Sequence record: OL615012
DNA from: Shigella phage vB_SboM_Phaginator
Reading direction: 5' to 3' (one strand)
Length of the DNA stretch: 64,000 nt
In this document: positions 3,856 to 8,834 of the stretch, piece by piece
Numbering within the stretch: position 1 is the first letter of the stretch
Layout: every line of letters begins with the position of its first letter
Program-made: the position numbers and the translations under genes
Notes under the pieces: generated by a model
Databases searched by the model: none
What the model was told of the DNA's origin: nothing
What the model saw: the letters and a program-made list of their open reading frames with translations, nothing else

Positions 3856-3938
3856 TTAAAATCCTTGAAATAATTTATTGGTTATTAATTATTTATCACG
3901 TTGTTATATGTAACAGCATTCTCCGAGCGATTCAAACT

Positions 3939-3965
3939 AAAAAGCCCCAACCTTTCTGTCGGGGC
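3939..3965 (-). terminator. rho-independent terminator after internal protein gene
   Basis: Minus-strand RNA GCCCCGAC-AGAAAG-GUUGGGGC followed by U5. Confidence 0.6.
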
Positions 3966-3972
3966 TAAAATG

Positions 3973-4446
3973 TTATTTAATTTGCTTAGCAGACCAAATG
4001 CGGTCTTTGATAATTTTTTGGATGTCTTCAACATATTCAAGAGAGTGAACATGTGGGTTATCTTTGAAACTATAAGCACGAGCTAGCTTTTGGCCTTCGG
4101 TTTTGATTACTAAAAGCTCTTTAAGGATAGCTTCATATTTGGAGATAATTCCTTTAACAATATTTTTCTCTTGTGCGACTTTAGGATCTGCTTTAGGAGC
4201 AGGTTTACCTGAAGCCTTTGCAAAAGCAGCTCCAGTAGCAACTAAACTTTTCCAGGCCATACTAACTGCATTCCCTGTAAATCCTTCCGCTTTCATATCG
4301 CGAGCAAATTGGAATCGTGATTCATCGGAAGCATCTTTATAGGAATATTTACCCGCGGCAATGGCAGCTTTTGCAACAGCTTGAATTTCGGTGCTAGATG
4401 CTTCATTTAACACCGCTTCATTTAAAAATTGAGCATATGATTTCAT
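3973..4446 (-). CDS. internal head protein (capsid-targeting sequence MKSYAQFLNE), ipII position
   Basis: 157 aa; N-terminal MK(T/S)Y-x-F-x-E motif with L-N-E cleavage site; late promoter upstream, terminator downstream. Confidence 0.6.
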   Translation of the reverse strand: MKSYAQFLNEAVLNEASSTEIQAVAKAAIAAGKYSYKDASDESRFQFARDMKAEGFTGNAVSMAWKSLVATGAAFAKASGKPAPKADPKVAQEKNIVKGIISKYEAILKELLVIKTEGQKLARAYSFKDNPHVHSLEYVEDIQKIIKDRIWSAKQIK

Positions 4447-4523: not shown

Positions 4524-4836
4524 CCTTGCGGCAACCTTGTCGGGGTTCCACCTGCTAAGGCAAGTGTTTGTACGAAACGCCGGGATTCGAACCCGGTTAT
4601 TAAGCAGTTGACGCTACTCAATATTTTTAAAAGGCCATATCTCGACCATATCCGAACGTTCCGTCAAAAACGCTACTCGGTTTACGGCAAAGATATTTCC
4701 TCGAATCGATAATTCGATGCGCCGTTTCTGCTGTGATGTAAGGGGGCATTAACCGATCGTAAAGATTTGTTAATGCCAGTCCTTACCCAGGGAACATCAG
4801 TCCGACGACTTGCCGGTAGCGACCCGGCTTCTTGTC
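4524..4836 (-). ncRNA. structured non-coding RNA region downstream of tRNA-Arg (possibly T4 RNA C / RNA D-like stable RNAs)
   Basis: About 310 nt between tRNA-Arg and terminator; no ORF; several hairpins and a T-arm-like motif CCGGGUUCGAAUCCCGG (4580-4596) but no full cloverleaf. Confidence 0.3.
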
Positions 4837-4912
4837 TGGTCGAGGCAGTAGGGATCGAACCTACGACCTAGGACTTAGAAGGTCCTTGCTCTTCCTTCTG
4901 AGCTATGCCTCG
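4837..4912 (-). tRNA. tRNA-Arg (anticodon UCU)
   Basis: Cloverleaf on reverse complement: D-arm GCUCAGAAGGAAGAGC, anticodon loop CUUCUAA, T-arm GGUUCGAUCC, encoded CCA. Confidence 0.85.
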
Positions 4913-4916
4913 TATT

Positions 4917-4991
4917 TGGCGGACGTGATAGGATTCGAACCTATAACCAATCGCTTAACAGGCGATCGCTCTGCCATTGAGCTACACATCC
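4917..4991 (-). tRNA. tRNA-Asn (anticodon GUU)
   Basis: Reverse complement GGAUGUGUAGCUCAAUGG...; anticodon loop CUGUUAA; T-arm GGUUCGAAUCC; encoded CCA. Confidence 0.8.
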
Positions 4992-4995
4992 AAAT

Positions 4996-5082
4996 TGGTG
5001 GGGAGTGATGGAGTCGAACCACCCGAGTCGCAATGACAATGGATTTACAGTCCACACCGCTACCTCTACGGGATAACTCCCC
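4996..5082 (-). tRNA. tRNA-Tyr (anticodon GUA), long variable arm
   Basis: 87 nt; anticodon loop CUGUAAA; long variable arm; T-arm GGUUCGACUCC; encoded CCA. Confidence 0.75.
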
Positions 5083-5094
5083 TAATTCATAATT

Positions 5095-5169
5095 TGGTGG
5101 CCCTGGGTGGAATTGAACCACCATCTGGCGATTATGAGTCGCTTGCTTGAACCTTCCAGCTACAGGGCC
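5095..5169 (-). tRNA. tRNA with anticodon CAU (Ile as in T4, or Met)
   Basis: Anticodon loop CUCAUAA; T-arm GGUUCAAUUCC; encoded CCA; Ile assignment by analogy with T4 tRNA-Ile. Confidence 0.7.
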
Positions 5170-5170
5170 T

Positions 5171-5246
5171 TGGTGCTGATTGACGGAATCGAACCGCCGA
5201 CCTTCTCATTACAAGTGAGTTGCTCTACCTACTGAGCTAAATCAGC
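5171..5246 (-). tRNA. tRNA-Thr (anticodon UGU)
   Basis: D-arm GCUCAGUAGGUAGAGC; anticodon loop CUUGUAA; T-arm GGUUCGAUUCC; encoded CCA. Confidence 0.85.
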
Positions 5247-5251
5247 AAAAC

Positions 5252-5341
5252 TGGCGGAGGCGATAGGATTTGAACCTATGAGTCGCCGGAGCGACTGCCG
5301 GTTTTCAAGACCGGTGCATTAAACCACTCTGCCACGCCTCC
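5252..5341 (-). tRNA. tRNA-Ser (anticodon UGA), long variable arm
   Basis: 90 nt; GGAGGCGUGGCAGAGUGG...; anticodon loop CUUGAAA; long variable arm; T-arm GGUUCAAAUCC; CCA. Confidence 0.85.
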
Positions 5342-5347
5342 AAATAT

Positions 5348-5956
5348 TTATATATTGTTAATTTGATTTAGAATTCTTTTTGCTTGAGTATGACTTACGC
5401 CAATATGCTTAGCATATTTAGACAATTCGCCACGTTTAGAAAAATCATATAATTTAGAAATTTCTATTCTTCTTTTTCTTTCATCCGCAGAAACTTTTGC
5501 TTCGTTTGCTTTTGCTATTTTACGTTTAGCTTCTTGAGAATGAGTTTTACCAGCAAAGCCATTCTTCATTAATCCATTTGAAGACCATCCTTTTAATTTT
5601 CCGTTAGAATGTGCCTTTTTAACACCCAATGAAATTAATTCGCGTTGCTGATCTGTCATAGGATAATTATTTATATGATCCCATCCACCTTCACCTCCAA
5701 GTTTTAAATTATACACATCTGGTCTATTTAAAAACTCTTCTGTGACAATATTTTTCTCGGCTTCAAGCATAGATTCTTTATCGTCAAAATACTCTAATAT
5801 TTCTTTAGAAAAATTTTCTATACCATATTTATCTTGGGCTCTTTTTAATAATTTACCAGAACCCATATATCCATCATCTAAATTTTCGGTAGAATGCACA
5901 CCAATATAAATTTTATTATTAATTTTATTTGTTATTTTATAAAGATAAAAATGCAT
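5348..5956 (-). CDS. segB: GIY-YIG homing endonuclease, SegB-like, embedded in tRNA operon
   Basis: GIY-YIG motifs (FYLYKI...KIYIGVHS, YMGSG); track ORF 5348..5998, preferred ATG at 5956 preceded by AGGGA. Confidence 0.8.
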   Translation of the reverse strand: MHFYLYKITNKINNKIYIGVHSTENLDDGYMGSGKLLKRAQDKYGIENFSKEILEYFDDKESMLEAEKNIVTEEFLNRPDVYNLKLGGEGGWDHINNYPMTDQQRELISLGVKKAHSNGKLKGWSSNGLMKNGFAGKTHSQEAKRKIAKANEAKVSADERKRRIEISKLYDFSKRGELSKYAKHIGVSHTQAKRILNQINNI

Positions 5957-6002
5957 ATCAGTCCCTAATAAAGAACTGAGCGTCTCACGACGAGTCATAA
6001 AT

Positions 6003-6076
<74 letters not shown>

Positions 6077-6081
6077 AAATT

Positions 6082-6170
6082 TGGTGCGAGAAGTGGGACT
6101 CGAACCCACAAGGAAATCATTCCGCAGCATTTTAAGTGCTGTGCCTTTACCAATTTGACCATTCTCGCGC
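6082..6170 (-). tRNA. tRNA-Leu (anticodon UAA)
   Basis: 89 nt; anticodon loop CUUAAAA; long variable arm; T-arm GGUUCGAGUCC; CCA. Confidence 0.9.
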
Positions 6171-6242
6171 TGGGAATAAAGGACTCGAACCTTTGCATCC
6201 TGGAATCAAAATCCAGTGCCTTACCAACTTGGCTAATTCCCA
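6171..6242 (-). tRNA. tRNA-Gln (anticodon UUG)
   Basis: Anticodon loop UUUUGAU; T-arm GGUUCGAGUCC; directly abuts tRNA-Leu; 3' CCA not obviously encoded. Confidence 0.8.
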
Positions 6243-6328
6243 ATTATTAACAAAGGCTCTCAAGCAAGAACCCTTGATGATAGAGGGTATTAATCAGTGC
6301 GGTATGAGTTAATAATAACAAATAATTC

Positions 6329-6844
6329 TTAAAGCAAATTAAACATTTTAACAGTCGGCAAAACAATTTCTTTTTCTATATAAGAGTATTTAACACTCTC
6401 AACTACACGCAAAAAATCATAATCATAATACTCAGAAGCACTGCCTAAAATATTAATAAGTCCTTCAAGCACTTTATTACCATTCACAAAGAATAAGTCA
6501 AATACACGTTCTTCGTCTTCTTCGGATTTATTACCAAGGTCAACTTCTATGTCAAAGACCTTTTTAATGAATTCTGGATAAAGTTGTTCTGAGAACAGTC
6601 CTTCAACCAAGTATTCATAAATAAAAAGCGATTGCTCGCTGAACAAGCCATTACCACAATAACGTTCAGCTTTAGTACTAGAATGTCTGCTTTTAAACTT
6701 CTTTAAAAGATATTGGAATTGTAAGATTTCATGCTCTTCTACGCCAAACAGTGTTTTAGTTTTATAGTTGTCACCATCATTTTCCCAGGTAGTGACATCA
6801 ATTACGTAACCCTGTGGAATTGTAGTACCTAAACAAATATTCAT
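6329..6844 (-). CDS. hypothetical protein
   Basis: 171-aa ORF, ATG start; internal duplicated GLFSEQ motif; no family recognised. Confidence 0.5.
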   Translation of the reverse strand: MNICLGTTIPQGYVIDVTTWENDGDNYKTKTLFGVEEHEILQFQYLLKKFKSRHSSTKAERYCGNGLFSEQSLFIYEYLVEGLFSEQLYPEFIKKVFDIEVDLGNKSEEDEERVFDLFFVNGNKVLEGLINILGSASEYYDYDFLRVVESVKYSYIEKEIVLPTVKMFNLL

Positions 6845-6847
6845 TTT

Positions 6848-7138
6848 TCACCACGCTGCATTAATATACGTTTTCTGAATACATTCAAGACCCAAAGGAT
6901 TCTTGAAAATATCATATTCAAGAGGACCTTTTTCTGTTTCAATAAAGAAATCAAAATTTACTGTATTAAATTTATGGTCTTCCTTCACTAATTTAACTTG
7001 AGAAGATGAACGGTCAACATAAACCTTTTCAACTTCAAAACATGTTAAAACACCATAATCATCAATCAAGGCTTTAGCCGCGTCTTGATCATATTTATAT
7101 CCATTTTCAATTGATGATACTTTAGCATAAAGAATCAT
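6848..7138 (-). CDS. hypothetical protein
   Basis: 96-aa ORF, ATG start, 3-bp gap from neighbours. Confidence 0.5.
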   Translation of the reverse strand: MILYAKVSSIENGYKYDQDAAKALIDDYGVLTCFEVEKVYVDRSSSQVKLVKEDHKFNTVNFDFFIETEKGPLEYDIFKNPLGLECIQKTYINAAW

Positions 7139-7141
7139 TAT

Positions 7142-7522
7142 TTACCCTTCATCAACAATAGTATGAGTGTGGGCATTTACAATTTGCCACCAATCAAAGC
7201 GATTAGAACCATACATTGGTTTGTTCTCATTTTCTTTGATAAGGTCACGGAGTTCATCTTCGGTAGCGGCTTTCGCGATTAAATCAGCATATCCACCGCG
7301 AGGATAATAATTATCACCTGCAAAAAGTAAAAAGTTTGCTTTAATATTATTAAACTTTTCAAGAGTAATAACTGTTCCACCAGGTTGAACAATCTCTACA
7401 TATTTATATCCTAATTTTTGAGCAGCATCTACTGCTTCAAGCAGGGTATCATGAGCCCATCCAACTTGGCAATCTGGCTTTTCAGATGGATTAGCCTGAT
7501 AATCCGCGTACACTTTATACAT
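7142..7522 (-). CDS. hypothetical protein
   Basis: Track frame 7142..7531 starts with GTG; preferred ATG at 7522 preceded by AAGGTG. Confidence 0.5.
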   Translation of the reverse strand: MYKVYADYQANPSEKPDCQVGWAHDTLLEAVDAAQKLGYKYVEIVQPGGTVITLEKFNNIKANFLLFAGDNYYPRGGYADLIAKAATEDELRDLIKENENKPMYGSNRFDWWQIVNAHTHTIVDEG

Positions 7523-7523
7523 T

Positions 7524-7709
7524 CTATTCACCTTTAGAAATTTTATCCATAACGATAGCGATTAAACCAATTAAAAATGCTACTACAAGCGAAAACACAT
7601 TTTCTGCTGTAGTTAATAATCCGCATATAAATCCAACAAACATTGAAAAACTAAAAGCGGAAGCAGAAATTGCAATAGCAACATTTCGAATTAATTCACA
7701 GCGTTTCAT
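7524..7709 (-). CDS. hypothetical small membrane protein
   Basis: Track frame 7524..7766 starts with TTG; ATG at 7709 preceded by GGAG; hydrophobic helices. Confidence 0.45.
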   Translation of the reverse strand: MKRCELIRNVAIAISASAFSFSMFVGFICGLLTTAENVFSLVVAFLIGLIAIVMDKISKGE

Positions 7710-7777
7710 TTTATTCTCCAATTTCACATTTGCTTTGATAGAACTACTATAACATAGTTCTATCAAGTTGTAAACTA

Positions 7778-8065
7778 TTATAGAAGATTTTTTGCAATAA
7801 TTTTAAGCTGAGCTACTGAAATATGCTTGGCTTTAAACAAAGCAGTTTCTTCAGCAGGAGAGATAACGATTGTAGCACCATCCTTTTTAGCAGACCACCC
7901 ATCACCTAGGTAAACAGTACCTTTGATTTCTTCGCCATCAACCAGACTAATCATTGGTTTACCTTCTCGTCCTTTATTTGCTTTAATAACTTCAGAAGTA
8001 AGAGTAGCTTCGGTAATAGTAGAAACCGGGGTAGTTGTAGAAGTAAATTCTTTGAAAGTTTTCAT
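7778..8065 (-). CDS. ipI: internal protein I (IPI), capsid-targeted injected protein
   Basis: 95 aa as T4 IPI; N-terminus MKTFKEF with I-T-E cleavage site giving a 76-aa mature form. Confidence 0.7.
   Translation of the reverse strand: MKTFKEFTSTTTPVSTITEATLTSEVIKANKGREGKPMISLVDGEEIKGTVYLGDGWSAKKDGATIVISPAEETALFKAKHISVAQLKIIAKNLL

Positions 8066-8137: not shown

Positions 8138-8834
<697 letters not shown>

Follow-up and report, generated by a model that had tools for sequence, protein, structure and literature searches.

A conserved trna gene cassette with a fourth member missing from T4 in Shigella phage vB_SboM_Phaginator

Results

We analysed a stretch of 64,000 nucleotides from Shigella phage vB_SboM_Phaginator (record OL615012; hereafter referred to as the window), in which four small open reading frames (ORFs) occupy positions 6329–7709, between a tRNA gene cluster and the gene ipI. 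Three of them are direct positional orthologues of the T4 genes trna.4, trna.3 and trna.2; the fourth, here termed ORF-A, is an ancestral member of the same cassette that was lost in T4. We regard this identity and architecture as close to certain. The cassette is already known and represents ordinary conserved phage 'dark matter', not a set of strain-specific novelties. Our best overall explanation, an early and dispensable cassette whose products bind host components, we rate as evenly balanced between right and wrong.

Identity of the four genes

All four genes lie on the minus strand. In the ORF list, ORF-A (6329–6844) encodes 171 amino acids with an isoelectric point (pI) of 4.62, and the trna.2 orthologue (6848–7138) encodes 96 amino acids (pI 4.75). 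The trna.3 orthologue (7142–7522) encodes 126 amino acids from an ATG at 7522 (pI 4.82), and the trna.4 orthologue (7524–7709) encodes 61 amino acids from an ATG at 7709 (pI 7.8). Longer versions of the last two, with 129 amino acids from a GTG (7142–7531) and 80 amino acids from a TTG (7524–7766), are not used in homologues: those of trna.3 all start at the 7522 ATG, T4 trna.4 uses the 7709 ATG, and the TTG would fall within the early promoter described below. The gaps between ORF-A and trna.2, trna.2 and trna.3, and trna.3 and trna.4 are 3, 3 and 1 bp. One reading frame is common to trna.3, trna.2 and ORF-A, with the stop codon and one codon between each pair. These lengths and the tight spacing agree with an earlier model-made interpretation of the same DNA (the sequence-only reading). 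That interpretation had also placed the ORFs upstream of ipI and 57B; given their minus-strand orientation, they follow both in the direction of transcription.

In the T4 record, trna.2, trna.3 and trna.4 occupy the identical place between tRNA-Gln and ipI, in the same order and on the same strand. Phage AR1 carries equivalents of all three at this locus, together with AR1_142, which corresponds to ORF-A. Full-length PHROG profile matches were obtained to phrog_2023 (trna.2, 1.8e-47), phrog_1411 (trna.3, 8.6e-55) and phrog_1692 (trna.4, 6e-35), and ORF-A matched phrog_2290 (2e-68); all four families are listed with unknown function. At the nucleotide level, bases 6200–7800 share 98.9% identity with Shigella phage ESh33 and have matches in 692 phage records; the region is that of a Tequatrovirus, a T4-like phage.

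By tblastn, 763 phage records contain trna.3, 803 contain trna.2 and 790 contain trna.4; of the trna.4 matches, 428 are at least 99% identical. The genes had been proposed to be strain-specific; with orthologues of three in so many records, and the absence of the fourth explained by a deletion in the T4 lineage, this description does not hold. The T4 proteins Trna.2 (P13324), Trna.3 (P13323) and Trna.4 (P13322) are recorded as 'conserved hypothetical' early proteins. The sequence-only reading had pointed to housekeeping orthologues at the same position in T4 as a decisive counterexample: orthologues are present there, and they carry no established function of any kind.

The four small ORFs are real genes, beyond chance ORFs. 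Ratios of non-synonymous to synonymous substitution rates (dN/dS) range from 0 to 0.45 against orthologues from AR1, T4, and Mosigvirus-type and Klebsiella-phage contigs, with dS reaching 1–2; all four are under purifying selection. Shine–Dalgarno-like GGAG/GGTG/AGGG motifs lie 5–9 nt 5′ of each of the four ATGs, and both start codons and ribosome-binding sites are kept among homologues. T4 tRNAs are classed as early transcripts. T4 trna.2 and trna.3 are classed as 'early RNA, early protein' and trna.4 as early RNA (PMC9697503 supplements).

ORF-A is a widespread phage gene

ORF-A is 97% identical to AR1_142, in the identical position, and corresponds to RB32/RB27-type genes; T4 lacks it. Relatives were found in 573 phage records, including T4-like phages of Klebsiella, Enterobacter and Aeromonas as well as jumbo phages, and an exhaustive HMMER search yielded 260 clusters (50% identity, E ≤ 1e-3), nearly all of 130–190 amino acids. 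In Aeromonas phage Asfd_1, the homologue lies within a matching 2-3-1-57A-57B-...-tRNA block. Alignment of the window with T4 revealed ~510 bp cleanly missing in T4, where the last ~15 nt of ORF-A remain because they belong to a conserved promoter-like element that precedes tRNA-Gln. Given the broad distribution and the precise gap, presence is the ancestral state and T4 the deletion. ORF-A is an old, widespread gene deleted in the T4 lineage, not a strain-specific gain, and its presence or absence is polymorphic among these phages. Because of this deletion, T4 genetics never sampled ORF-A. One exact pattern scan (A1 patterns) of 185,579 bacterial and archaeal species genomes gave no relative, so the family looks phage-only.

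The family is defined by a signature, GY..(T/S)WENDGD..Y.T followed by GxGN and Y..F.RV.E, all residues of which are present in the window protein. Among 85 diverse members, E21 and D23 are invariant, and G12, W20, N22, D25, G64, N65, Y140 and R146 are conserved in at least 90%. An AlphaFold2 (AF2) model of ORF-A (predicted local distance difference test score 87.7, predicted template modelling score 0.82) begins with a beta-hairpin and a helix, continues through a helical middle and closes with strands at the C-terminus. Model strands span residues 12–20 and 28–35, and W20–Y27 form the hairpin loop. This nearly invariant acidic loop of the beta2–beta3 hairpin, W20-E-N-D-G-D-N-Y27, is encoded at 6764–6787 on the minus strand.

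A duplicated GLFSEQ motif in the 171-residue protein, singled out in the sequence-only reading, is indeed present at residues 66–71 and 82–87 (6584–6649, minus strand). An exact six-residue repeat of any kind arose in only 21 of 20,000 shuffles of ORF-A. The two copies use different codons, with 12 of 18 bases identical, and so do not stem from a recent DNA duplication. The first copy reads TPFSDC in relatives of 80–85% identity and is missing from the wider family. Because the codons differ and the copies are not conserved even at 80–85% identity, we dropped the motif as a functional repeat and give it no functional weight.

Several ORF-A homologues have distinctive neighbours. In Klebsiella Jiaodavirus, a 149-amino-acid ORF (locus L003, 4558–5007) begins at the stop codon of the ORF-A homologue and overlaps it, and a 105-amino-acid ORF does the same in Aeromonas Asfd_1 (locus L004, 4489–4806). 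These ORFs might be partner gene candidates; the window instead has tRNA-Gln after ORF-A. A distant homologue, P0014, carries an N-terminal extension of ~75 amino acids and occurs on metagenomic phage contigs (L007, 6001–6603; L008, 1473–2075). It lies between NMNAT-Nudix and NAMPT genes, an NAD-salvage pair, which are followed by a Dda/PIF1-like helicase and a T4-type RNA ligase 1.

Trna.2, Trna.3 and Trna.4

Trna.2 has a mean column identity of 87% in the homologue alignment. Trna.3 consists of two alpha/beta modules, a variable N-domain (residues 1–60) and a nearly invariant C-domain (residues 61–126) with the motifs NFLLFAGDNYYPxGGYxDL and FDWWQIVNA. Compared with T4, 19 of 60 residues are identical in the N-domain (32%) and 56 of 66 in the C-domain (85%). 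Two deeply divergent Trna.3 alleles exist within Tequatrovirus, independent of ORF-A presence (T4 locus 3919–4329); contig IMGVR_UViG_3300010279_000005 encodes a 96%-identical ORF-A yet a 60%-identical, T4-type Trna.3. An internal duplication of Trna.3 was considered and rejected, as hhalign between the two halves gave a probability below 1%. Comparisons among the four proteins with hhalign likewise revealed no relationship (probability below 1%).

Trna.4 shows hydrophobic segments at residues ~10–33 and ~37–54 in its hydropathy profile. These fit a membrane hairpin, in agreement with its initial description as a 61-residue membrane protein, and an N-in/C-in topology is predicted from the K/R-rich N-terminus. 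The protein is 100% identical to its T4 counterpart (dN = 0, dS = 0.075), and dN is also 0 against AR1.

The T2L ORFs named 'trna.1/trna.2' in the SegB paper are different ORFs, located inside the tRNA cluster, and we set them aside.

Transcription unit and surroundings

A T4-type early (sigma-70) promoter lies at 7746–7774 on the minus strand, between the ipI stop codon and trna.4, with GTTTACA, a 17-nt spacer and a TG-extended TATAGT. In the promoter scan it matched the consensus at 10 of 12 positions, plus the TG extension; GTTTACA and the −10 hexamer are kept at the equivalent position in T4 and AR1, with a different spacer. A middle-promoter-like site follows at 6312–6338 on the same strand, with the MotA box TTTGCTTTA, 12 nt and TATTAT. 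Its MotA box overlaps the ORF-A stop codon, the site is 70 nt upstream of tRNA-Gln, and this stretch is identical in T4. Read directly from the sequence, it fits the published MotA-dependent middle-promoter consensus of T4, and it is a putative promoter feeding the tRNAs directly.

The early promoter 3′ of ipI would drive trna.4, trna.3, trna.2 and ORF-A in this phage, and transcription would then continue past the middle promoter into the tRNA genes. The tight gene spacing suggests translational coupling. Because an early promoter precedes trna.4 and a middle-promoter-like site precedes the tRNAs, the cassette appears to form a protein-coding leader to the early transcript of the tRNAs, which the second promoter would also serve.

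The first tRNA genes downstream of the cassette are tRNA-Gln, tRNA-Leu and tRNA-Gly (6003–6242, minus strand; ARAGORN and Rfam), of which tRNA-Gln (6169–6242) begins 86 nt past the ORF-A stop codon. Rfam identified only tRNAs in the region, with no RNA family within 6329–7709. Transcriptionally upstream, also on the minus strand, are ipI (7778–8065; PF11634, 5e-52) and 57B/Acb1 (8138–8593; PF23474, 3e-60). The ipI–trna.4 spacer (7700–7800) differs from that common to T4 and AR1, with the promoter hexamers retained, and AR1 has a different gene (ar1_146) in the place of ipI. The spacer difference and this replacement would both fit an exchange of cassettes at ipI.

In total, nine tRNA genes span 4837–6242 on the minus strand, in the order Arg, Asn, Tyr, Met, Thr and Ser, then a seg gene, followed by Gly, Leu and Gln. 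Unlike the eight-gene set of T4, this one contains Asn, Tyr and Met but neither Ile nor Pro, which matches AR1 and T2L-type clusters. The interrupting gene, between tRNA-Ser and tRNA-Gly, is a 216-amino-acid ORF of the GIY-YIG homing-endonuclease type (5348–5998, minus strand). Its equivalent is annotated 'segD' in AR1, and T4 segB sits elsewhere in its tRNA cluster. Further downstream, 4560–4836 (minus strand) shows ~90% identity in alignment with rnaD and rnaC, the stable RNA species 2 and 1 of T4, and an additional ~115 nt end in a strong terminator-like hairpin (4520–4497). No Rfam family covers these rnaD/rnaC-like RNAs.

Fold, family and defence searches

The four proteins had been described as uncharacterised, and searches against local Pfam, NCBIfam, PADLOC and PDB (phmmer) collections bear this out, with no significant match. 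The local Pfam copy was without the models PF26894 and PF27001, which are the precomputed families on every close homologue of Trna.3 and Trna.2, respectively. Weak matches were at chance level only: DUF7554 (E = 0.064), TusC (E = 0.038) and FliJ (E = 0.085). Searching the 85 ORF-A members against Pfam gave scattered single-member noise, and a PDB profile search was unhelpful. A fold search of BFVD returned only uncharacterised relatives. ORF-A and Trna.3 apparently adopt folds without a solved-structure neighbour. The remote-homology and structure searches that the sequence-only reading had recommended delivered family matches, to PHROGs, and indicated no known function or fold.

Compared with defence-system components, the four proteins gave no PADLOC match at E ≤ 0.1. 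The searches likewise revealed no homology to known anti-defence families. We also asked whether they resemble internal head proteins. None of the four matches the Pfam model IPI_T4, which the window's own ipI matches at 5e-52. By inspection, their N-termini (MNICLG, MILYAK, MYKVYA and MKRCEL) are unlike that of ipI (MKTFKEF), and their T4 orthologues are early, unlike the late expression expected of IPI/IPII/IPIII-type proteins.

Possible functions of the cassette

As the most likely mode of action, we tentatively propose that the four proteins are stoichiometric binders of host proteins, serving either host take-over or a counter-defence that is important on particular hosts only; for this functional part, our confidence falls somewhat short of even. 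We do not think that they are enzymes or housekeeping proteins. The proteins would be made in the first minutes of infection and be dispensable on laboratory Escherichia coli. They would comprise three small, acidic, soluble proteins with compact alpha/beta folds unlike known enzymes, and a 61-residue, two-helix inner-membrane peptide. Trna.2 would contact a defence complex, for which the defence-associated reverse transcriptase (RT) DRT1 is the only candidate in the literature. In Trna.3, the variable N-domain would set target specificity while the conserved C-domain would provide a common core, and ORF-A would engage a partner through the invariant acidic WENDGD hairpin.

This proposal rests on timing, dispensability, size and charge, on folds that do not resemble those of enzymes, on the modular way in which Trna.3 varies and on the DRT1 pull-down. 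In a HIDEN-SEQ study, insertions were recovered at 23 of 25, 39 of 40 and 16 of 17 TA sites in T4 trna.2, trna.3 and trna.4, respectively, and all three were classed as 'Non-essential' (10.1101/2025.11.20.689424), in keeping with their initial designation as accessory genes. T4 also lives without ORF-A. The sole direct lead to counter-defence is a published pull-down, in which, of the T4 proteins, only Trna.2 and Inh showed significant enrichment with wild-type DRT1 relative to an RT-knockout control (PMC13275509). Anti-defence function is proven for the neighbouring genes ipI and Acb1, and interaction with the host or its defences is further supported by the confinement of the Trna.3 dimorphism to the N-domain and by the presence/absence polymorphism of ORF-A.

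Several points weigh against the binder proposal. None of the four proteins is known to have anti-defence or host-binding activity. T4 is DRT1-sensitive despite encoding Trna.2 (PMC13275509), and Trna.2 is therefore at best a ligand or partial modulator of DRT1. HIDEN-SEQ challenges with RexAB, RnlAB, the cyclic-oligonucleotide-based anti-phage signalling system (CBASS), DarTG1 and DarTG2, or with M9 medium, gave no reported hits among the trna genes, and the changes of these genes are not significant in one of the comparison tables of that study. Trna.4, with its complete identity to T4, and Trna.2, with its high mean column identity, are much more conserved than arms-race genes typically are. 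Acidic pI and the absence of a known fold are weak, non-specific arguments; the invariant E, D, N, R and Y residues of ORF-A could equally mark a metal-dependent active site; and proximity to ipI and Acb1 may reflect a general clustering of non-essential early genes.

Alternative explanations

One alternative is that the four ORFs are not functional genes and form a mere transcribed leader or spacer ahead of the tRNA genes. Their position as the 5′ leader of the tRNA transcription unit would suit this, as would the non-essentiality of trna.2, trna.3 and trna.4 in T4 and the deletion of ORF-A there without obvious harm. Such a leader is at odds with dN/dS far under 1 over dS up to ~2, with conserved starts and ribosome-binding sites, with confident, well-folded AF2 models and with protein-level homologues across genera and families. 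Moreover, T4 Trna.2 and Trna.3 proteins have been detected in infected cells, and Trna.2 was seen in pull-down mass spectrometry. Protein detection and purifying selection effectively refute this explanation, to which we give almost no credence. A different possibility is a tRNA-linked function, chiefly of ORF-A: it would act on or for the phage tRNAs, in precursor processing or stability or in protecting tRNAs and translation from tRNA-targeting nucleases of the host, and gene and tRNAs would move as one module. Host defences that target tRNAs include the anticodon nucleases PrrC and RloC, AriB of the phage anti-restriction-induced system (PARIS) and retron/PtuAB-type effectors. ORF-A ends shortly before tRNA-Gln and would share a transcript with the tRNAs; homologues lie within the Klebsiella Jiaodavirus tRNA array, and that of the unrelated jumbo phage K64-1 precedes tRNA-Leu by 141 bp; and a 97-kb contig has the arrangement tRNA – 48 bp – ORF-A – 73 bp – tRNA. 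At 38 of 80 IMG/VR loci there are tRNAs within 10 kb, 374 in total and all on the strand of the ORF-A homologue, and the nearest tRNA is at most 700 bp away in 23 of these 38. When the loci are collapsed to 46 lineages at 50% identity, a tRNA is no more than 2.1 kb away in 18, and P0014 adjoins NAD-salvage genes and an RNA ligase of the T4 type. Control ORFs of at least 100 amino acids on the same strand in the locus windows, however, lie within 700 bp of a tRNA in 24.8% and within 2.1 kb in 43.7% of cases. The enrichment is thus only about two-fold, as the within-window controls are also near tRNAs. In jumbo phages, many ORFs are closer to tRNAs than ORF-A is, about half of the lineages have no tRNA within 10 kb, and much of the signal is Straboviridae synteny inherited by descent. 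T4 keeps a functional tRNA set after deleting ORF-A, which is therefore not needed for phage tRNA expression; the acidic ORF-A (pI 4.6) is unfavourable for direct RNA binding and resembles no RNA-processing fold. The ORF-A family lives in tRNA-rich early accessory islands, and a specific tRNA function is possible, if weakly supported; the tRNA explanation as a whole we consider unlikely.

Slightly less probable again are functions outside host immunity, with Trna.4 as a small inner-membrane protein comparable to Imm, Sp or rI, acting on superinfection exclusion, the timing of lysis or ion balance, and the soluble proteins tuning host metabolism or phage gene expression in conditions outside those sampled by laboratory assays. 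Trna.4 is a two-helix peptide under extreme purifying selection, with no amino acid changes against T4 and AR1 and 428 records at 99% identity or more, a pattern easier to reconcile with contact to a conserved membrane component of host or phage than with an arms race. HIDEN-SEQ also shows that accessory T4 genes can be medium-dependent, such as vs in M9. Against this, Trna.4 is unlike Imm, Sp, rI and the membrane families of Pfam in sequence, its only match being the sub-threshold one to DUF7554 (E = 0.064), and the trna genes were not hits in the comparison of lysogeny broth (LB) with M9. A bolder proposal starts from the ORF-A homologues that lie in or next to tRNA arrays of unrelated large phages, on the tRNA strand throughout: the family would be an unrecognised tRNA-island partner, for example an inhibitor or decoy for tRNA-targeting defence nucleases that acts jointly with the phage tRNAs. 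In a parallel proposal, Trna.2 would be a specific ligand of the DRT1 filament, acting as a trigger or partial inhibitor. These strike us as improbable, more so than either of the two preceding alternatives.

A side observation concerns the K64-1 locus (NC_027399, 172527–180970), where many 'hypothetical proteins' of 20–35 amino acids overlap or abut ARAGORN tRNAs. These are probably annotation artefacts.

The cassette belongs to the large share of T-even genes without an assigned function, and its presence here is unsurprising. It offers four handles: the Trna.2–DRT1 contact, the variable N-domain of Trna.3, the acidic loop of ORF-A with its tRNA islands, and the hyper-conserved hairpin of Trna.4. 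If any of the four binders that we propose proved to be a counter-defence protein, the ipI–Acb1 anti-defence neighbourhood would extend to the tRNA genes.

Comparison with known systems

One small acidic early phage protein has a beta-hairpin and helix that superpose on ORF-A residues ~12–50; ORF-A, at three times its size, contains a further helical bundle. This superposition is no evidence of homology or of uracil-DNA glycosylase inhibition. The T4 early small membrane proteins Imm and Sp have exclusion-type roles. Trna.4 resembles them as an early, very small helical membrane protein of T-even phages, and differs in having no detectable sequence similarity to them and no known exclusion phenotype.

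A further comparison is with the neighbouring anti-defence proteins IPI (anti-GmrSD) and 57B/Acb1 (anti-CBASS), which share with the four ORFs a neighbourhood, small size and dispensability on laboratory hosts. They differ in that there is no sequence or profile similarity; IPI is a packaged head protein with a capsid targeting sequence (CTS) leader and Acb1 is a 2H-type phosphodiesterase, and neither feature occurs in the four ORFs.

Within its own family, no member of which has a known function, ORF-A shares signature and fold with Klebsiella phage JD18 protein A0A0K1Y4S9 (TM-score 0.76). The duplicated GLFSEQ is peculiar to the sub-lineage of the window.

The closest known system is the T4 trna.2–trna.4 cassette itself. 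Trna.3 departs from it in the N-domain, which is only 32% identical to that of T4; the window carries a different Trna.3 allele, nearer to the Mosigvirus type (87–90%). In addition, T4 Trna.2 has a different C-terminal tail, generated at the ORF-A deletion junction. The position between ipI and tRNA-Gln, the gene order, the strand and the position of the early promoter are common to both phages, as are the proteins themselves, with amino acid identities of 92% for Trna.2, 85% for the Trna.3 C-domain and 100% for Trna.4.

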